A stretch of 32,000 bases of DNA from assembly GCF_000014785.1 (NCBI RefSeq), contig NC_008340.1, forward strand, positions 2,820,001 to 2,852,000, read 5' to 3'. The translations under genes were made by a program, and so were the position numbers. Shown here piece after piece: positions 20,103 through 26,713 of this stretch (position 1 is its first letter; the number at the start of each line of letters is the position of its first letter). The notes beneath the pieces are model-generated. The model did no database searches and was not told the DNA's origin. It worked only from the letters and a program-made list of their open reading frames with translations. The stretch comes from Alkalilimnicola ehrlichii MLHE-1 (GTDB taxonomy: Bacteria > Pseudomonadota > Gammaproteobacteria > Nitrococcales > Halorhodospiraceae).

Positions 20103-20648
20103 ATGAGCACGACCCGCGAGCAAACCACGGTGGTGGAACACCCCACGCAGGAACAGCCGGAACCGCAGCCCAAGCGCATGTCCATCATTGTCACCAAGGG
20201 CACACTGGACTGGGCCTATCCCCCCTTCATCCTGGCCACCACCGCGGCGGCCATGGACGTCAAGGTCGACCTGTTCTTCACCTTCTACGGCCTGCAACTG
20301 CTCAAGAAGGACCTCAGCCACCTGCGCATCTCTACCCTGGGCAATCCGGCCATGGAGATGCCGATGATGGGCATGCACATGGCCATGCCCAATCTGGTCT
20401 CGGCACTGCCCGGGGTGGACCGAATGGCCTCGGGGATGATGCGCCGGCTGATCAAAAAGAAGGGCGTCGCCTCGGTGGAGGACCTGCGCCAGACTGCCCT
20501 GGACTGCGATGTCGGCATGGTCGGCTGCCAGATGACCCTGGACCTGTTCGAGTTCCGGCGCGAGGACCTGATCGACGGGGTGGAACTGGCCGGCGCCGCC
20601 ACCTACATGGAGACGGCGCTGAACTCCGACATCAATCTCTACGTCTGA
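20103..20648 (+). CDS. DsrE2/DsrE3-like sulfur-relay protein (DsrE/DsrF-like family, COG2210 type)
   Basis: MSIIVTKGTLDWAYPPFILATTAAAMDVKVDLFFTFYGLQLL plus the conserved active-site context VGMVGCQMTLDLF...DLIDGVELAGAATYME. AGGAGAGAG RBS. It starts 40 nt after the FadL stop. Confidence 0.8.
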   Translation: MSTTREQTTVVEHPTQEQPEPQPKRMSIIVTKGTLDWAYPPFILATTAAAMDVKVDLFFTFYGLQLLKKDLSHLRISTLGNPAMEMPMMGMHMAMPNLVSALPGVDRMASGMMRRLIKKKGVASVEDLRQTALDCDVGMVGCQMTLDLFEFRREDLIDGVELAGAATYMETALNSDINLYV

Positions 20649-20774: not shown

Positions 20775-21416
20775 ATGGCCGTGGTCAGCGATCGACTGAT
20801 GGAGGAACCCCGGGCCCGGGCGGGCGAGGCCGACAGCGGCCTGCGCCGTGGCCCCAGCCCGCTGGAGCGCCTGTTCAGCCTGTGTGCCCCGGAGGACCGC
20901 AAGGGGTACGAACCCGGACGACGCTCACTGCGCATCGACGGCCACTGCACCACCATCCGCCTGGAGCAGGCCTTCTGGTCCGTATTGGAGGAGATCTCCG
21001 CCGAGGAGGGCATGACCATCCCGGAGATCATCGCCCAGGTGCAATACCACTGTCAGAGCGTCAACGACAAGAATATGGCCAGCTGCCTGCGGGTGCTTTG
21101 CCTCAAGTACATCAACACCTGCGCCTGGGCCACACCGGGCGAGGGCACTCCCGGGACGCCAGCCCTGCCCCAGCCCGGCCCGCGCATGGAGTTGGACACC
21201 CGGGGCCTGAGCTGTCCGCAACCGATCCTGCGCACCAAGAAGGCCCTGCGCGGCCTGGAGCCGGGCGAGGAACTCCGGGTGATCACCAGCGACCGCGGCT
21301 CGGCCATGGACTTTGACGTGTTCTGCCAGGCCATGGGCCACCGTCTGGTCTGGGAGCGGGAGACCGAAGAGGCCTACGTCTTCCTGCTGCAGAAGGGCAC
21401 CGGCGGCGCGGTCTGA
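20775..21416 (+). CDS. Fusion protein: N-terminal ribbon-helix-helix (RHH_4/COG4321-like) domain, Pro/Gly linker, C-terminal TusA/SirA sulfurtransferase domain
   Basis: Single uninterrupted frame. RRSLRIDGHCTTIRLEQAFWSVLEEISAEEGMTIPEIIAQV...NMASCLRVLCLKYI resembles RHH_4. The linker is ATPGEGTPGTPALPQPGPR. MELDTRGLSCPQPILRTKKALRGLEPGEELRVITSDRGSAMDF is a canonical TusA with a CPxP cysteine. GGAGAGGG lies 8 nt upstream of the ATG at 20775. Confidence 0.75.
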   Translation: MAVVSDRLMEEPRARAGEADSGLRRGPSPLERLFSLCAPEDRKGYEPGRRSLRIDGHCTTIRLEQAFWSVLEEISAEEGMTIPEIIAQVQYHCQSVNDKNMASCLRVLCLKYINTCAWATPGEGTPGTPALPQPGPRMELDTRGLSCPQPILRTKKALRGLEPGEELRVITSDRGSAMDFDVFCQAMGHRLVWERETEEAYVFLLQKGTGGAV

Positions 21417-21442: not shown

Positions 21443-22669
21443 TCAGAAGCTGTACTTCGCCGAGACCTGCACGCGGTTCAGCTCGCCGCTGTCCTCACCA
21501 TAGGCGTCCTCGCCCTCGATCTCCCGCTCGGCCCAGATGTACTCCACGCCCACGTCCACGTTCTGCACCGGTGTATAGATCAGGTTGAGGTGCACCGACT
21601 GGATCTGCTCGTTGGCCGTCTCCGGGGCGCTGCTGGGGTTGTCGGCCTTGGCCAGGCTGTAGACCAGGCTGCTGCGCAGGGTCTGATTCCACCAGTGCCG
21701 ATAGGACACATACCCACCCCAGATGCTCAAGGAGTCCAGATTGCCCTGGTCGTCGATAAAGGCATCGGGAAAGGCGTTCAGGCCGAGGTAACGGCCGAGT
21801 CCGTCGCCGTAGTTGAGCTGAAAGCGGACATCATTGCGCCCTCCGGCCTTCACCACGCCGGTCAGGCTGAGTGCGCCCACCCACTCGTCGTCGTCCACGT
21901 CGGCGCCGAGTTCCCGCGAGGTGCTGCGATCGACCCGGAGATTCCGGGCGACGCCAGCCAGGGAGCCGTGGCCCCAATCCCCCGAGACGTTGTAGCGGGC
22001 GACGAACTCCGGCCAGCGGTCATCCCGGGCGTTGCGGATGGCATCGCCCGGATCGGCCTCACCCAACGTCGCCTCGGAGGCCAGGGTGGTGAAGGGCTGT
22101 TCCACCGCCAGCATCAGGCTGTTGCCCTGCTCCAACGGCAGGGTGTAGCGCACCTGGATATTGCGATTGAACACCGTGCCGGCGGGCCCGACGAAATCCA
22201 GGGTCTCCGGTTTGGTGGTAACGTTGTAGAAAGTGCCCCAGGTCTGCCCGGCCAGCCAGTTGCCCAGCTGACCGAAGGCGTGCCGTAGCCGCGGGGGCTG
22301 GTTGCCCACCAGGCGGTTGCGGTCGATGGCGGCATCCTCGAGAAAGTCCACTTCGAGAAACGTGGTCAGATCCCCCAGGCCGGTGGGCGTCTGCGTGCGC
22401 AGGTTGACCCGACTCTCACGCACGCTGTAGCGGGTGACATTCCGTGAGTCCTCCTGCCCGTCCAGCGGGATCAGGGCGGGGATCATGAAGGCCTCGCTGC
22501 GGTCGTTGGCGGCACGGTTGGTCACATCACTGAAGTGGGCATCCATCTTCACGTAGCCGCCGAAATCGACGGTGGTCTCCGCCCACGCCGGTGAGATGAT
22601 CAGCCCCAGCAGTGCGGCGGTGGCCACCCCCAGGCAAACCGGTTTTTTGGTATGGCATGTGCTGCGCAT
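21443..22669 (-). CDS. Outer-membrane porin (DcaP-like beta-barrel)
   Basis: From the ATG at 22669 (AGGAGA 8 nt upstream): signal peptide ...IISPAWA-ETTVDFGGYVKMDAHF. LRHAFGQLGNWLAGQTWGTFYNV..PETLDFVGPAG is typical of this porin family. The C-terminus is SAKYSF. Confidence 0.65.
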   Translation of the reverse strand: MRSTCHTKKPVCLGVATAALLGLIISPAWAETTVDFGGYVKMDAHFSDVTNRAANDRSEAFMIPALIPLDGQEDSRNVTRYSVRESRVNLRTQTPTGLGDLTTFLEVDFLEDAAIDRNRLVGNQPPRLRHAFGQLGNWLAGQTWGTFYNVTTKPETLDFVGPAGTVFNRNIQVRYTLPLEQGNSLMLAVEQPFTTLASEATLGEADPGDAIRNARDDRWPEFVARYNVSGDWGHGSLAGVARNLRVDRSTSRELGADVDDDEWVGALSLTGVVKAGGRNDVRFQLNYGDGLGRYLGLNAFPDAFIDDQGNLDSLSIWGGYVSYRHWWNQTLRSSLVYSLAKADNPSSAPETANEQIQSVHLNLIYTPVQNVDVGVEYIWAEREIEGEDAYGEDSGELNRVQVSAKYSF

Positions 22670-22899
22670 GGTCGTTATCTCCTGACGGTGTGCAGTGTTC
22701 GCGATGACAAAGCGACGGTGCCCGAAGGCCCCCAGACACCGTCCCGTAGGAGTGTCGCCGGCCCCAGCCGACCCACCATGCGCATTAATACTTACTCGGT
22801 TTTTACTTAGTTTCCGGTTGCCTACGCAATTCCCCGGATGCGCCCGGGGCACCTGTTCTGCTGGACTGGCGGGAGATCCGGTTCAGGAGACCCGATGCC

Positions 22900-23949
22900 A
22901 TGCCCAGCAACAGCAGACGACAGTGGGGCAGCGCCAGGATCGCGGCGCTGGCTGTGGCCCTTGCGGTGACGGGGCAGGCCCACGCCCGCCTGCCGGTGGT
23001 CGACCCGCCGCTGATGCCCGAGGCGCCGGCGGATTACCGCGCCGCCAGCCTCTCCGGGGGGCCCGGGAAGGACGGCATCCCGGCCATCGACAACCCCGCG
23101 TTCCAGGCCGCCTCGGAGGCCGACGCCCGGCTCGACGACGGCGACCGGGTGGTGGGCCTCTACCATGACGGCGAAGCCCGGGCCTATCCCCAATCCATCC
23201 TGGTCTGGCACGAAATCGTCAACGACACCGTGGCCGGCGAGAACATCGCCGTCACCTACTGCCCCCTCACCGGTACCGCCCTGGGTTACCTGCGCGGCGA
23301 GACCACGCTGGGCGTCTCCGGCCGCCTGGTGAACAGCAACCTGATCATGTTCGACCGGGCCAGCGACAGCCTCTGGCCCCAGATACTGAGTGCCGGCATC
23401 GGCGGCCCCCACGAGGGCCAGGGGTTGGAGGAAGTGCGCGTGGTCTGGACCACCTGGGGCCGTTGGCGCGAGCGCCACCCGGACACCCGGGTGCTGACCA
23501 CGGACACCGGCTACCTGCGCAATTACAACCGCGACCCCTACGGCGGGTATAACCCGGTCCGGGGCTATTACGCCCCCAACGCATCGCCCATCTTCCCGGT
23601 CCGCCCGAGCAGCGACCGCTACCCGCCGAAAGAGGAGGTCTTCGGCATCCGCACCGCCAGTGCCGCGGTGGCGCTGGATCGGGACCACCTCGCGGCGGCG
23701 GGCGTGGTGAACATTCCGCTGGGTGATGACCACCTGGTGGTGGTCCACGACCCCGGCCTGGATACCGGTTGGGCCTTTCGTGCCGACGAGGCGGTGGCGC
23801 TGGACCCGACAGCGCTGCGGTTCGGGCCCGAGGGCCCGGTACACCCGGAGTTGGCGGACCTGGAGCGAGTGAACGGCTTCGAGGCCATGTGGTTCGCCTG
23901 GTACGCCTTCTATCCGGATACGGTGGTGGTCGATGGCGCTGGCCGCTGA
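22900..23949 (+). CDS. Secreted DUF3179 domain-containing protein
   Basis: Signal peptide MPSNSRRQWGSARIAALAVALAVTGQAHA. GKDGIPAIDNPAF...RVVGLYHDGEARAYPQSILVWHEIVND...IAVTYCPLTGT...MFDRASDSLWPQ matches my recollection of DUF3179 (PF11376) conserved blocks. Confidence 0.8.
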   Translation: MPSNSRRQWGSARIAALAVALAVTGQAHARLPVVDPPLMPEAPADYRAASLSGGPGKDGIPAIDNPAFQAASEADARLDDGDRVVGLYHDGEARAYPQSILVWHEIVNDTVAGENIAVTYCPLTGTALGYLRGETTLGVSGRLVNSNLIMFDRASDSLWPQILSAGIGGPHEGQGLEEVRVVWTTWGRWRERHPDTRVLTTDTGYLRNYNRDPYGGYNPVRGYYAPNASPIFPVRPSSDRYPPKEEVFGIRTASAAVALDRDHLAAAGVVNIPLGDDHLVVVHDPGLDTGWAFRADEAVALDPTALRFGPEGPVHPELADLERVNGFEAMWFAWYAFYPDTVVVDGAGR

Positions 23950-24472
23950 TCCGGTGCCCCGCCGCGCCGCCCTGGCCGCGGGGCTGGGCTACGCGGCGCT
24001 TTATCTCTGGCTGACCGGTGATCTCGACCTCACGGGCGACACGGCCTGGCGCTGGCAGTTGGGGCGCCTGGAATGGGCACATGTAATCCAGGCACGCGCG
24101 CCGTTTCTCTACGAAGCCGTTGCCCTCGTCCAGGCGGGCCGCCTGATGTGGCTCATCAGCCCGCTGAACCTGCTGATCACCGCCCTGCTTGCGGGCCTGC
24201 TGGCCGCCAATGTGCACGGCATGCTGACCCTGCGCCGTGGCGCGGCCACCCATTGCCGCAGCGGGCGGGGGGGCGCGGCCAGCGGCGCCCTGCCGGCATT
24301 GCTGGCCGGCTCCGCCTGTTGCGCCCCCGGCATCCTGCTGCTGTTGGGCATTCCGGCCCTGGGGGCCTTTGTCGGGTTGTTCGCCTGGCTGATCCCCCTC
24401 TCCCTGCTGCTGCTGGCCCTGAGCCGCGGCTGGCAGCGGTGGTGGGGCGCGCCCCCGCTCCTCGGGCGCTAG
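23933..24472 (+). CDS. Hypothetical 4-TM inner-membrane protein with intramembrane vicinal cysteines (MerT-like SACC motif)
   Basis: Four hydrophobic segments. LLAGSACCAPGILLLLGIPALG places Cys129-Cys130 (nt 24317-24322) inside TM3. The ATG overlaps the DUF3179 gene end by 17 nt. The stop shares CTAG with the convergent kinase gene. Confidence 0.6.
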   Translation: MALAADPVPRRAALAAGLGYAALYLWLTGDLDLTGDTAWRWQLGRLEWAHVIQARAPFLYEAVALVQAGRLMWLISPLNLLITALLAGLLAANVHGMLTLRRGAATHCRSGRGGAASGALPALLAGSACCAPGILLLLGIPALGAFVGLFAWLIPLSLLLLALSRGWQRWWGAPPLLGR

Positions 24473-25800
24473 TACCGCAGGGTGACGTCGAAACGCGCTC
24501 CGCCGAGGGTTTCGGAGCGGTCCACGGTCACCTGGCCACCCCGGACGGCGGCCAGGTCGCTCACCACCGCCAGGCCTATCCCCTGCCCCGGGTGGCGTTC
24601 ATCGGCCCGGCCACCGCGGGCCAGGATCCGCTCCACCTGTGCCGCCGGGACACCGGGGCCGTCGTCCTCCACCTGCAGCCACAGGCCCTCGCCGTTGCGC
24701 TGGCCCGCGCTCACCACCACCTGCGAGCGGGCATGGCGCACGGCGTTGTCCAGCAGGTTGCCGGCCAGCTCCATCAGCTCCGCCTCGCCACCAGCGAAGC
24801 GCACATCCGGCGGGCAGTCCAGCCGCAACCGCACGCCAGGGTCCAGCTTCCGCAGCGCCGCCAGCAGCCGTTCCAGCACCGGCCGCACCGGCAACCGGTC
24901 ACCCAGCGGGGCCGGTCCGTGGCCGGCCCGGCGCAGGTGGTAGTCGATGGCCTGGTCCATCCGCCGGAGCTGGGCGGTGGCCGTATCGGCCCCGTCGGCG
25001 GGCAACTGGCTGCGCAGCACCGCCAGCGGGGTCTTGAGACTGTGGGCCAGGTCCCCCAGGGCCTGCTGGTGGCGCTCCATCCGTTGTTGCTGGGCGGCCA
25101 GGAGCTGGTTGAGTCGGCGGGTCAGGGCGCTGAGCTCCGGCGGGTGGTCCTCACCCAGCCGGCGGACGCGGCCGGCCTCCACCGCCTGCAGCTCACGGCC
25201 GATACGGCGCAACGGCTGCAGTGTCCAGCGCAGCAACAGCAACTGGGTGAGCAGCAATCCCCCGGCGGCCACCGCCAGCCAGCCCCAGAGCGCCTGGCGG
25301 AAGCGGGCCAGTTCACCGGCGAAAACGGCCTGCTCCTCCAACACCTGCAGGGTGAAGCGACCGCGTTCGCCATCCGCCTCCTCCCAGGCGATCCCGTAGG
25401 CCAGGCCGTGCAGCGGCGCCCCGTCGGCGGGGGCCACGCCACCCTCCTGGGTCTCGCCGGGCGCCAGCCGGGGCGGCGCGGGCAGGGTCCGGTCCAACAG
25501 TGAGGGCGAGCGCCAGCGGATGGTGCCACCGTCGTCGATCACCTGGGCATAGAGCCCGGAGCCGGCGCTGCGCAGCCGCGCATCGGGCAGTTCCCCGGCC
25601 AGGACCAGGGCCTGATCGCGCAGCTCAGCGGCGGCCAGCAGCCCGAAGATCTGCCCCTGGAGGCGCTGGCTGCGGGCCTCCTCGGCACCCTCGCGGAAGG
25701 CGTGGTCGACCACCAGTCCGGTGGTGCCCAACAGCAGAAGCAGGGAGGCGCCGGCCACCCAGAGCACCCGGTGCAGCAGCGGGAGGCGCCGCAGACGCAT
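24469..25800 (-). CDS. Sensor histidine kinase (PhoQ/QseC/BqsS-like: TM, periplasmic domain, TM, HAMP, HisKA, HATPase)
   Basis: H-box LGDLAHSLKTPLAVL, N-box NLLDNAVRHA and G-boxes EDDGPGV / GQGIGLAVV. Two TM segments flank a periplasmic domain of about 145 aa. The start ATG at 25800 overlaps the regulator stop (ATGA). Confidence 0.9.
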   Translation of the reverse strand: MRLRRLPLLHRVLWVAGASLLLLLGTTGLVVDHAFREGAEEARSQRLQGQIFGLLAAAELRDQALVLAGELPDARLRSAGSGLYAQVIDDGGTIRWRSPSLLDRTLPAPPRLAPGETQEGGVAPADGAPLHGLAYGIAWEEADGERGRFTLQVLEEQAVFAGELARFRQALWGWLAVAAGGLLLTQLLLLRWTLQPLRRIGRELQAVEAGRVRRLGEDHPPELSALTRRLNQLLAAQQQRMERHQQALGDLAHSLKTPLAVLRSQLPADGADTATAQLRRMDQAIDYHLRRAGHGPAPLGDRLPVRPVLERLLAALRKLDPGVRLRLDCPPDVRFAGGEAELMELAGNLLDNAVRHARSQVVVSAGQRNGEGLWLQVEDDGPGVPAAQVERILARGGRADERHPGQGIGLAVVSDLAAVRGGQVTVDRSETLGGARFDVTLRY

Positions 25801-26480
25801 CACCCCGCCCTCGCCAGCCTTAACCGGTAACCCCGGCCGCGCAGGGTCTCGATGGGTTGGAGGGTGCCGTCGGGGTCCAGCTTGCGGCGCAGGCGGCGGA
25901 TGAAGACCTCCATCACGTTGCTGTCGTGCTCGGCCGCGTCGGGGTAGAGGTGTTCCTCCAGCCGGGTCTTGGACAGCACCGCGCCCTGGTGCAGCATCAT
26001 GTAGTGCAGCAACCGGAACTCGCTGCCGGTCAGCTCGATCCGGGCACCGTCGCGCCAGGCGGTCTGGCTGCGGGTGTCCAGCGCCAGCGGCGGGCACCGC
26101 AGCACCGGGTCGGCCCAGCCCCCCGCACGGCGCAGCAGCGCCTGGACCCGGGCCAGCAGCTCCGGCATCTCGAAGGGTTTGACCAGGTAGTCGTCGGCCC
26201 CGGCCTCCAGGCCGGTCACCCGATCCTGCCAGTGCCCCCGGGCGGTGAGGACGAGCACCGGCAGGGTGCGTCCGTCCGCGCGCAGCGCGCGGATGAGTTC
26301 CAGGCCGGAGAACCGCGGCAGGCCCAGATCGATGATCGCCAGATCCAGCGGGTAGTCGCGGGCCATGTGCAGCCCCTCGCGACCGTCTGCCGCCTGGTCC
26401 ACCACGTAGCCCGCGCGGCCGAGCGCGTCGGCCAGTTGCCGGCGCAGGGCGGGTTCGTCCTCGACCACCAGCAGCCGCAT
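25800..26480 (-). CDS. OmpR/PhoB-family response regulator
   Basis: MRLLVVEDEPALRRQL...DLAIIDLGLP (receiver Asp) with a winged-helix C-terminus ...IETLRGRGYRL. The ATG at 26480 overlaps the upstream PepSY stop (TGATG). Confidence 0.9.
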   Translation of the reverse strand: MRLLVVEDEPALRRQLADALGRAGYVVDQAADGREGLHMARDYPLDLAIIDLGLPRFSGLELIRALRADGRTLPVLVLTARGHWQDRVTGLEAGADDYLVKPFEMPELLARVQALLRRAGGWADPVLRCPPLALDTRSQTAWRDGARIELTGSEFRLLHYMMLHQGAVLSKTRLEEHLYPDAAEHDSNVMEVFIRRLRRKLDPDGTLQPIETLRGRGYRLRLARAG

Positions 26481-26713
26481 CAACGGACCTCGCCGGTGCG
26501 GGCATCGACCCGGAAGACACGCACTTGGCCCGGGGCGACCAGCACCCGGACCCGGTAATGATTGCCGCGGCGCTCGACCCCCAGGACCCGGCCGTCGGTG
26601 TGCTCGCGCACCCGGGCCACGGCCTCGCGTTCACTCAAGCCGGCCGGCGCCGGGGTCGCGAGCAGCAGCAACGGCGTGGCGCAAAGCAGGCGCAGGCAGG
26701 TTCTACGGTTCAT
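26480..26713 (-). CDS. Small secreted PepSY-like domain protein
   Basis: MNRRTCLRLLCATPLLLLATPAPA signal peptide, then LSEREAVARVREHTDGRVLGVERRGNHYRVRVLVAPGQVRVFRVDARTGEV, which is the PepSY pattern. Translationally coupled to the regulator. Confidence 0.65.
   Translation of the reverse strand: MNRRTCLRLLCATPLLLLATPAPAGLSEREAVARVREHTDGRVLGVERRGNHYRVRVLVAPGQVRVFRVDARTGEVR

Follow-up and report, generated by a model that had tools for sequence, protein, structure and literature searches.

Introduction

The described systems closest to the locus studied here are the MerP/MerT mercury transport proteins of Tn501 and Tn21, the MerF transporter, the CcdA/DsbD proteins with their TlpA, ResA or DsbE clients, and the YeeE/YeeD (TsuA/TsuB) thiosulfate uptake system. 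The locus itself consists of two overlapping genes of Alkalilimnicola ehrlichii MLHE-1, one for a secreted DUF3179 protein and one for a small membrane protein (hereafter the partner), and was analysed within a stretch of 32,000 nucleotides (contig NC_008340.1, positions 2,820,001 to 2,852,000, forward strand), referred to as the window. As in MerP/MerT, the gene of a secreted thiol protein lies beside that of a small inner-membrane protein, and the membrane protein carries a vicinal Cys-Cys pair followed by a proline in a helix running from the inside to the outside, together with cysteine on the cytoplasmic side.

The CcdA/DsbD systems are comparable in that membrane cysteines serve a specific extracytoplasmic protein with a Cys motif. 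Moreover, genes for TlpA/DsbE-like thioredoxin-fold proteins lie near DUF3179 genes of the CxxC type that have no partner, and a CcdA-like gene directly follows the pair in one locus (L052). However, the partner has no sequence similarity to CcdA, a six-helix protein whose two cysteines lie on separate helices, and the clients of CcdA/DsbD are thioredoxin folds, which DUF3179 is not. YeeE/YeeD likewise combines a Cys-lined membrane pathway with a single-Cys, TusA-like sulfur carrier, and genes for YeeE, TusA, DsrE and rhodanese recur near DUF3179 genes; in contrast to the pair, its soluble component is cytoplasmic rather than extracytoplasmic, and homology is lacking, as the partner gives no Sulf_transp match. 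Cysteines have a role in the YeeE pore.

A full-text literature search turned up three papers in which DUF3179 is mentioned, all of them lacking a function or functional data for it, and gave no description of the partner. A sequence-only reading of the window had drawn attention to the two genes and had proposed a periplasm-to-membrane relay for a soft metal or for sulfane sulfur. Here, the pair was followed through genomes, protein families and structure models.

The gene pair in the window

The features of the pair are as follows.

22900..23949, + strand: DUF3179 gene, 349 aa, secreted, mostly-beta, CxxT subfamily (Pfam PF11376)
22900..22986, + strand: predicted Sec-type signal peptide, residues 1-29, ending in AHA, read from the sequence
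23254..23277, + strand: TYCPLTGT motif, residues 119-126, codon of C121 at 23260-23262
23922..23949, + strand: gene junction, with Shine-Dalgarno-like GGTGGTGG at 23922-23929, partner ATG at 23933 and DUF3179 stop codon at 23947-23949
23933..24472, + strand: membrane partner, 179 aa, four transmembrane (TM) helices and an outward-facing beta-domain
24023..24157, + strand: extracytoplasmic beta-domain of the partner, residues 31-75, holding the conserved E61
24254..24256, + strand: C108 of the partner (THCRSG loop), at the cytoplasmic end of TM2
24275..24343, + strand: TM3 of the partner, residues 115-137, with P121, C129-C130 (24317-24322) and P132; MerT/MerF-like segment

The 349-aa protein matches Pfam PF11376 with an E-value of 7.5e-101 and 337.8 bits (gathering cutoff 27) over profile positions 1-292 of 292. 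Its assignment to DUF3179 is borne out by the score and by the conserved family motifs GIP, WHE..N, [YFW]C/U-P-L-C/T and GVSG.L, the columns of which are invariant in an alignment of the CxxC and CxxT forms; the protein of the window has the CxxT variant. The N-terminus, MPSNSRRQWGSARIAALAVALAVTGQAHA followed by RL, looks like a Sec-type signal peptide, and the N-termini of the homologues are all hydrophobic. Export by the twin-arginine translocation pathway was rejected, the homologues having no conserved twin-arginine. The only cysteine of the protein is C121, located in TYCPLTGT. Both the signal peptide and the motif had been recognised by the sequence-only reading, which had also stated correctly that CPLC prevails in the family (73 of 174 sampled sequences are CxxC).

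The AlphaFold2 model of the DUF3179 protein is mostly beta, with a predicted local distance difference test (pLDDT) score of 89.5 and a predicted template modelling (pTM) score of 0.86. A Foldseek search of this model against the PDB gave nothing significant (best E-value 0.11), with neither a thioredoxin fold nor a redox-enzyme match detected, and a sequence-profile search of the PDB returned no relative.

The overlap of the two genes is exactly 17 nt (ATGGCGCTGGCCGCTGA), as the earlier reading had it, and GGTGGTGG lies 4 nt upstream of the partner start codon.

Pairing of the two genes across genomes

The pairing was scanned in one genome per GTDB species, which returned 80 partner loci. In all 79 testable loci a DUF3179 gene lies directly upstream of the partner gene on the same strand; the 80th was left outside the count, its contig ending 24 nt from the membrane gene. 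From the opposite side, the three genomes looked up for DUF3179 (Spiribacter, Natronocella and Halofilum) each have a partner of 181-187 aa abutting the DUF3179 gene. The junctions are tight or overlapping in most loci, an overlap of 4 nt being the commonest. The pairing is thus obligatory and tightly coupled, and the conserved partner of DUF3179 that the sequence-only reading had called informative is present from both sides.

Paired loci span the Gammaproteobacteria, Gemmatimonadota, Rhodothermia, Spirochaetes, Desulfuromonadota and Halobacteria, with carriers among the Ectothiorhodospiraceae, Halomonas and its relatives, Pseudomonas, Alcanivorax, Salinisphaera, Pelovirga and several haloarchaea. 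Saline habitats and soda lakes are the source of most of them. No further gene accompanies the pair in every locus. The apparent neighbour clusters 2, 3, 4 and 12 were discarded as antisense shadow open reading frames (ORFs) of DUF3179 and the partner.

The membrane partner: conserved residues and topology

The partner family has no Pfam or NCBIfam model. A word-indexed search yielded 118 homologues, none with a Pfam domain, and a profile search of 1.84 billion cluster representatives yielded 343 family members at a threshold of E<=1e-3, or 250 at the stricter E<=1e-10. Almost all of them are 160-230 aa in length.

The partner of the window has exactly three cysteines, C108, C129 and C130. Conservation was counted over 150 representatives at 50% clustering. 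Overall identity between members of the family drops to about 30%. C129 is kept in 142 of 142 aligned representatives, C130 in 140 and P132 in 139 of the same 142, and C108 in 143 of 148. Further conserved positions are N79 (132/150), N93 (138/150) and, in the beta-domain, E61 (128/150). Judged from this alignment, the conservation of the cysteines is far beyond chance.

In the AlphaFold2 model (pLDDT 83.3, pTM 0.75) helices extend over residues 8-28, 77-107, 115-137 and 143-170, and four TM helices are also backed by hydropathy. Between the first two helices, strands 31-43, 54-56 and 64-75 (pLDDT > 83) form the beta-domain, which had no place in the earlier account and may offer a docking surface for DUF3179. 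TM3 is the least confident part of the model (pLDDT 62-71). A Foldseek search of the model against the PDB gave nothing significant (best E-value 1.3), so that neither the DUF3179 fold nor the partner fold is represented there.

The topology was predicted by the positive-inside rule on 131 full-length homologues. It places the N-terminus inside, the net acidic beta-domain outside, the C108 loop inside because of its positive charge, the uncharged turn between TM3 and TM4 outside and the C-terminus inside. In this model the Cys-Cys pair, which belongs to the segment LLAGSACCAPGILLLLG (residues 123-139) within helix 3, is intramembrane, about two-thirds of the way toward the outer face of TM3, and C108 is at the cytoplasmic boundary. 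The four helices, the vicinal cysteines in the third helix and the additional cysteine in the THCRSG loop, all named in the sequence-only reading, were accordingly recovered. Its own tests of conservation and of the membrane location of the cysteines also came out in its favour, and none of the computable outcomes that would have spoken against it was observed.

No natural fusion of DUF3179 and partner was found among the 150 representatives. One protein (P0285, 627 aa) joins a partner domain (residues 30-206) to a galactokinase-like (GHMP kinase) C-terminus, a combination that is most likely a read-through or gene-calling artefact.

Motif variants, selenocysteine and unpartnered DUF3179

All 78 partnered DUF3179 genes scored for the motif have [TS]YCPLT, i.e. 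the CxxT form, whereas the 73 CxxC sequences in a sample of 174 DUF3179 sequences all lack the partner. In a neighbour-joining tree of these 174 sequences the partnered genes constitute a single clade of 81 members, all CxxT. The association of motif and partner therefore represents one evolutionary event and not many independent correlations, and for the same reason the p-value of Fisher's test of motif against partner (5e-34) does not count independent events. Since then, bacteria and archaea have exchanged the pair as a unit.

Outside this clade, six distant plasmid-borne DUF3179 genes, all CxxC, have no partner-family match within 3 kb, and 80 metagenomic relatives of the Thiothrix type have no partner; 58 of the latter were testable, with at least 600 nt of downstream sequence. 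The motifs of these 58 are CxxC (49), UxxT (5), UxxC (2), SxxC (1) and CxxT (1), and a cysteine occupies the second motif position in 58 of the 64 unpartnered relatives (58 metagenomic and 6 plasmid-borne).

Wherever an in-frame stop codon stands at the position of the motif cysteine in the metagenomic relatives, it is TGA (10/10). These codons confirm the status of DUF3179 as a selenoprotein, which selenoprotein surveys list with a UxxC/T motif and without a function (PMC9312934, PMC13188914). The selenocysteine forms lie in L151, L153 (two copies), L154, L158, L159, L160, L162, L170 and L171, and their motifs are UPLTQ (6), UPLTS, UPLTA, UPLCS and UPLCG, so the second position is usually threonine alongside selenocysteine. 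The presence of selenocysteine at this position marks the residue as the functional nucleophile. A Cys-rich membrane neighbour of the UxxT-type selenocysteine genes was sought and not found.

In some Gemmatimonadota, a second, divergent CxxT paralogue of DUF3179 lies beside the pair and has no membrane partner of its own:

L050:11124-11816, L053:3520-4464, L060:6737-7681, L063:2915-3481: second CxxT paralogue
L068:1164-2237, L069:3529-4602, L080:3574-4515: second CxxT paralogue, further loci

In L050, L053 and L063 the second paralogue is followed by an ORF of roughly 300-340 aa that by eye resembles an outer-membrane beta-barrel and has no NCBIfam match, and a DsrE-like gene is located upstream in five of the loci with a second paralogue.

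Likeness of the partner to MerT and MerF

The sequence-only reading had compared the third helix of the partner with the first helix of MerT, and the Tn501 sequence that it quoted is 100% identical to annotated MerT genes. The partner of the window matches the Pfam MerT model PF02411 with an E-value of 0.009 (16.4 bits; cutoff 32.9) and the NCBIfam MerT model NF010314 with an E-value of 0.004 (17.4 bits; cutoff 150), both below the curated thresholds. Among 42 members of the partner family, 20 match Pfam MerT individually (best E-value 4.6e-5), 2 match MerF weakly, and no other family recurs; there was no DsbD or CcdA match at E-values up to 1 and one marginal match to DsbB (E-value 0.072). 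In a profile search of the PDB with the partner family, the only solved structures found were four MerF entries (2M67, 2H3O, 1WAZ, 2LJ2; E-value about 0.03), the alignment starting just past the partner Cys-Cys and covering the helix-turn-helix. By hhalign against a five-sequence MerT alignment, residues 110-171 of the partner align with MerT 6-68, Cys-Cys on Cys-Cys and Pro on Pro, with an E-value of 8e-4 and a probability of 24%.

The TM3-TM4 hairpin of the partner is thus in register with TM1-TM2 of MerT, C129-C130-A-P132 falling on MerT C24-C25 and P28 in a helix that leads from the inside to the outside. Beyond this hairpin the two proteins differ. MerT carries its Cys-Cys pair in the first of three TM helices, whereas the partner, with two extra N-terminal helices and a beta-domain, carries it in the third of four. 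MerT has a cytoplasmic Cys pair after TM2 (C76/C82 in Tn501), whereas the partner has a single cytoplasmic cysteine before the hairpin and none past it. MerF (Pfam PF11431) is a two-helix protein whose C-terminal tail holds a further Cys-Cys pair, while the partner has four helices and a tail free of cysteine. On the side of the soluble protein, DUF3179 has no relation to the HMA-fold protein MerP, exceeds it fourfold in size, has one cysteine instead of a CxxC motif, and is encoded first, reversing the gene order. A mer operon with MerR, MerP and MerA was not found in the 60 non-redundant partnered loci inspected.

The likeness to MerT is therefore recurrent and in register at CC-x-P, as had been proposed, and the partner is no member of the MerT family by any curated threshold; of the structure and profile comparisons with MerT, MerF and CcdA, those by Foldseek and with CcdA were negative. 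The partner may work like the two-helix core of the Mer transporters, distant kinship being possible, and is not a MerT.

In the course of these searches, a MerT-family gene on the Salinibacter ruber plasmid pSR60 (NZ_CP030371.1; L083:1393-2058) was seen to contain an in-frame TGA immediately before ACC (..AVAA*ACCTIPLAL..). Its annotated coding sequence starts downstream of the TGA, and the next gene encodes a GDCCVxC (seleno)protein; the gene probably encodes a selenocysteine-containing MerT with a mis-set start.

Gene neighbourhoods

Neighbours were counted in the 60 non-redundant partnered loci, within about 3.5 to 6 kb to either side of the pair.

Extracytoplasmic function (ECF) sigma factor, some with zf-HC2 anti-sigma factor: about 13/60 loci
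AhpD-like CMD: 11/60 loci
DoxX: 10/60 loci
Class-I flavoprotein disulfide reductase, often with a VTT/DedA gene: 10/60 loci
DUF302: 8/60 loci
ArsM-like methyltransferase: 6/60 loci
DsrE-like: 5/60 loci
Rhodanese: 4/60 loci
YeeE: 3/60 loci
Glutaredoxin: 2/60 loci
MerR-like: 2/60 loci
Membrane thioredoxin: 1/60 loci
CcdA-like: 1/60 loci
MerT: 1/60 loci
MerP-like: 1/60 loci

The common theme of these neighbourhoods is thiol and thiophile chemistry and not mercury resistance. The unpartnered CxxC and selenocysteine types share the flavoprotein, VTT/DedA, ArsM-like methyltransferase and ECF sigma factor neighbours, and the commonest neighbours of unpartnered forms are DsbE/TlpA/ResA-like thioredoxin-fold proteins (AhpC-TSA, Redoxin, Thioredoxin_8: 6). 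Sulfur-relay genes (DsrE-like, rhodanese, YeeE) are present in about 10 of the 60 loci. In Natronocella acetinitrilica (L092:5648-8719) DUF3179 and partner are followed, in an operon-like array, by genes for a membrane-anchored thioredoxin (CPHC), a rhodanese bearing a signal peptide, a YeeE-type transporter and a small Cys-rich protein, and L007 shows a similar arrangement; Haloferax larsenii has YeeE, TusA, DsrE, a helix-turn-helix gene and DUF3179 in a row.

The flavoprotein disulfide reductase is directly adjacent to the pair in L091, L017 and L021. It was rejected as a MerA, having the CxxxxC motif and lacking the C-terminal Cys pair, at 367 bits against a cutoff of 454. Flavoprotein loci include L091:5586-7013, L017:6549-8492 (647 aa, with an N-terminal extension of no identified family), L002 and L014. 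VTT/DedA domains and class-I flavin adenine dinucleotide disulfide reductases recur beside both partnered and unpartnered DUF3179 and are sometimes fused, L148:7417-9639 being a single ORF of VTT/DedA and flavoprotein.

Gemmatimonadota and one gammaproteobacterium encode an ArsM-like methyltransferase at a distance of 2-3 kb from the pair:

L014:2666-3709, L050:1823-2890, L053:8784-9851, L060:8826-9893, L063:7875-8924, L064:9040-10104: ArsM-like methyltransferase

Its N-terminal part carries TGACC/TNACC and its C-terminal part ACC/GCC. Among the NCBIfam models it matches arsenite methyltransferase best, but the 184 bits do not reach the cutoff of 263. The same gene was also seen near two unpartnered DUF3179 genes (L141, L152).

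In the window itself, the genes upstream of the pair are the following.

20103-20648, + strand: DsrE2, NCBIfam DsrE2 225 bits (cutoff 210); context gene only
20775-21416, + strand: RHH_4-TusA fusion, Pfam TusA E-value 3.2e-22; context gene only
21443..22852, - strand: DcaP-like outer-membrane porin, Pfam DcaP E-value 2.3e-31; divergent from DUF3179

The DsrE2 and RHH-TusA genes lie 1.5-2.8 kb upstream of the pair with the divergently transcribed porin gene in between, which agrees with the location given earlier. Sulfane sulfur had been suggested as cargo on account of this adjacency, which is specific to this genome: DsrE2/TusA stands beside the pair in only 1 of the 60 loci, the window, and a conserved link is ruled out. 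The true start of the porin gene is probably near 22669, and a similar porin gene is found upstream of the pair in L037. The gene at 20775-21416 joins a ribbon-helix-helix (RHH_4) domain to TusA and adjoins the DsrE2 equivalog, a domain composition that suggests a DNA-binding sulfur-carrier protein. Downstream, the stop codons of the partner gene and of a convergent histidine-kinase gene overlap by 4 nt (24469-24472), leaving no space for an intergenic terminator. The 721-aa histidine-kinase ORF is over-extended at its 5' end, where it overlaps a response-regulator gene (25800-26483). The remaining genes of the window are unrelated housekeeping genes.

Discussion

Starting from the observed gene pairing, the invariance of the cysteines, the topology and the association of CxxT with the partner, we tentatively read the two proteins, by analogy with the logic of MerP/MerT, as a two-part cysteine relay across the cytoplasmic membrane; this reading, the likeliest of those considered, is plausible, though somewhat short of probable. 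The secreted DUF3179 protein would bind a thiophilic species outside the membrane, covalently or coordinatively, via C121 (selenocysteine in some relatives), dock on the outward beta-domain of the partner and pass the cargo to C129-C130 in the outer-leaflet half of helix 3. From there the cargo would travel along a polar, proline-kinked conserved path (N79, N93, P121, P132) to C108 at the cytoplasmic face and on to cytoplasmic acceptors. The partner cysteines would thereby replace the second cysteine of the CxxC motif that unpartnered DUF3179 proteins possess themselves. From the pairing, the topology and the co-variation of the motif we infer the hand-off from C121 to C129/C130; physical contact of the two proteins, the transfer direction and the nature of the cargo are likewise proposed conditionally. 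Since the Cys-Cys pair is intramembrane and C108 is at the cytoplasmic face, the geometry fits a relay, and to this extent the earlier suggestion of a periplasm-to-membrane relay stands. Candidate cargoes are a chalcogen or metalloid, a soft metal, or electrons, and the neighbourhoods speak slightly more for species that form covalent bonds to sulfur (sulfane sulfur, selenium, As(III)) than for metals of the mercury type.

Several observations weigh against the cysteine relay. The hhalign probability is low and all Pfam and NCBIfam MerT scores remain under the curated cutoffs, so the resemblance to MerT could be convergence between hydrophobic helices. TM3, which holds the Cys-Cys pair, has the lowest confidence in the model of the partner, and because C108 and the Cys-Cys pair are in opposite halves of the bilayer, a transfer between them would need helix movement. 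No single cytoplasmic acceptor is conserved. Genes for mercury and other metal resistance are rare in the 60 loci (MerT 1, MerP-like 1, MerR-like 2), and a single thiol is a poor chelator of Hg(II). Some UxxT and CxxT forms have no partner, which means that loss of the second cysteine does not always depend on it. Finally, an electron relay accounts for the thiol-redox neighbourhoods about as well.

The latter alternative, a transmembrane electron (thiol-disulfide) relay, is the main rival, possible but on balance unlikely. DUF3179 would be an extracytoplasmic redox enzyme with one catalytic cysteine or selenocysteine; with every turnover, oxidised C121 would form a mixed disulfide with C129/C130, be resolved to a vicinal disulfide, and this would be reduced via C108 by a cytoplasmic thioredoxin, glutaredoxin or flavoprotein disulfide reductase. 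The partner would then be a dedicated miniature counterpart of CcdA/DsbD, and the CxxC forms of DUF3179 would be recycled by soluble TlpA/DsbE-like thioredoxins. Catalytic redox residues typically show an exchange of selenocysteine and cysteine such as that seen at the first motif position (10 TGA; PMC9312934), and loss of the second cysteine coincides with gain of a partner that supplies cysteines. Unpartnered CxxC forms mostly neighbour thioredoxin-fold DsbE/ResA/TlpA-like proteins, while an enrichment of thiol-redox genes is seen around the pair (AhpD-like CMD, flavoprotein reductase and glutaredoxin, besides single cases of membrane thioredoxin and CcdA-like genes, and ECF sigma factors with zf-HC2 anti-sigma factors). 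However, the partner has no similarity to CcdA, DsbD, DsbB or VKOR apart from the one marginal DsbB match (E-value 0.07, n=42), the DUF3179 model has no thioredoxin fold or redox-enzyme match, and no candidate substrate presents itself. In known membrane electron conduits the two cysteines stand on different helices close to the middle of the bilayer, unlike a vicinal pair with a distant third cysteine, and the sole family resemblance of the partner is to cargo transporters (MerT, MerF).

True uptake or detoxification of a soft metal (Hg, Cu, Ag, Cd), with the partner as a divergent Mer transporter and DUF3179 as a non-homologous replacement of MerP, is improbable. The matches to MerT and MerF with their common CCxP register agree with it, as do scattered genes: a genuine MerR-MerT pair 4 kb from the module in L060, a MerR-like gene just downstream in L079, a secreted HMA/MerP-like protein directly upstream of a selenocysteine-type DUF3179 in L159, an ArsR-type regulator adjoining another in L170, and a GDCCVxC protein next to DUF3179 in Thiothrix, the family of which lies beside MerT and MerP in L081 and L083. 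Yet the three TM helices, cytoplasmic Cys pair and mer operon that define MerT are all missing, the recurrent flavoprotein is no MerA by its C-terminus and score, metal genes occur in at most 4 of the 60 loci, and DUF3179 offers one thiol only. With mer genes nearly absent near the pair, mercury or another soft metal, the first cargo named by the sequence-only reading, finds little support in the genomic context.

A passive partner, i.e. a membrane anchor, an assembly factor or an unrelated co-transcribed protein whose cysteines are structural or bind a cofactor of its own and take part in no transfer, would agree with the absence of natural fusions, but is quite improbable given that the two genes strictly occur and are transferred together in two domains of life, and given the correlated change of the DUF3179 motif, and the near-invariance of CC-x-P and of the cytoplasmic cysteine while the remainder of the protein diverges to about 30% identity.

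Returning to the cysteine relay, its most far-reaching form would be a previously unrecognised trans-membrane system in which an ancestral CxxC motif has in effect been split between a secreted monothiol protein (with cysteine in the window and selenocysteine in relatives) and a membrane protein with a Cys-Cys pair and a third cysteine, which moves a chalcogen or metalloid (sulfane sulfur, selenium or As(III)) or reducing equivalents, and which has spread horizontally as a unit among halophilic and alkaliphilic bacteria and archaea. In this complete form the proposal is speculative and rather unlikely.

DUF3179 is a large family of bacteria and archaea and the partner family has not been described previously. 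An obligatory neighbour with invariant cysteines provides the first functional lead for both, with C121, C108, C129 and C130 as testable residues and with cultivable Halomonas, Pseudomonas benzenivorans, A. ehrlichii and haloarchaea as carriers of the pair. If the relay is real, it would extend the principle of MerP/MerT to a non-homologous periplasmic partner and possibly to a cargo other than a metal, and it would explain the loss of the second cysteine in one clade of DUF3179.

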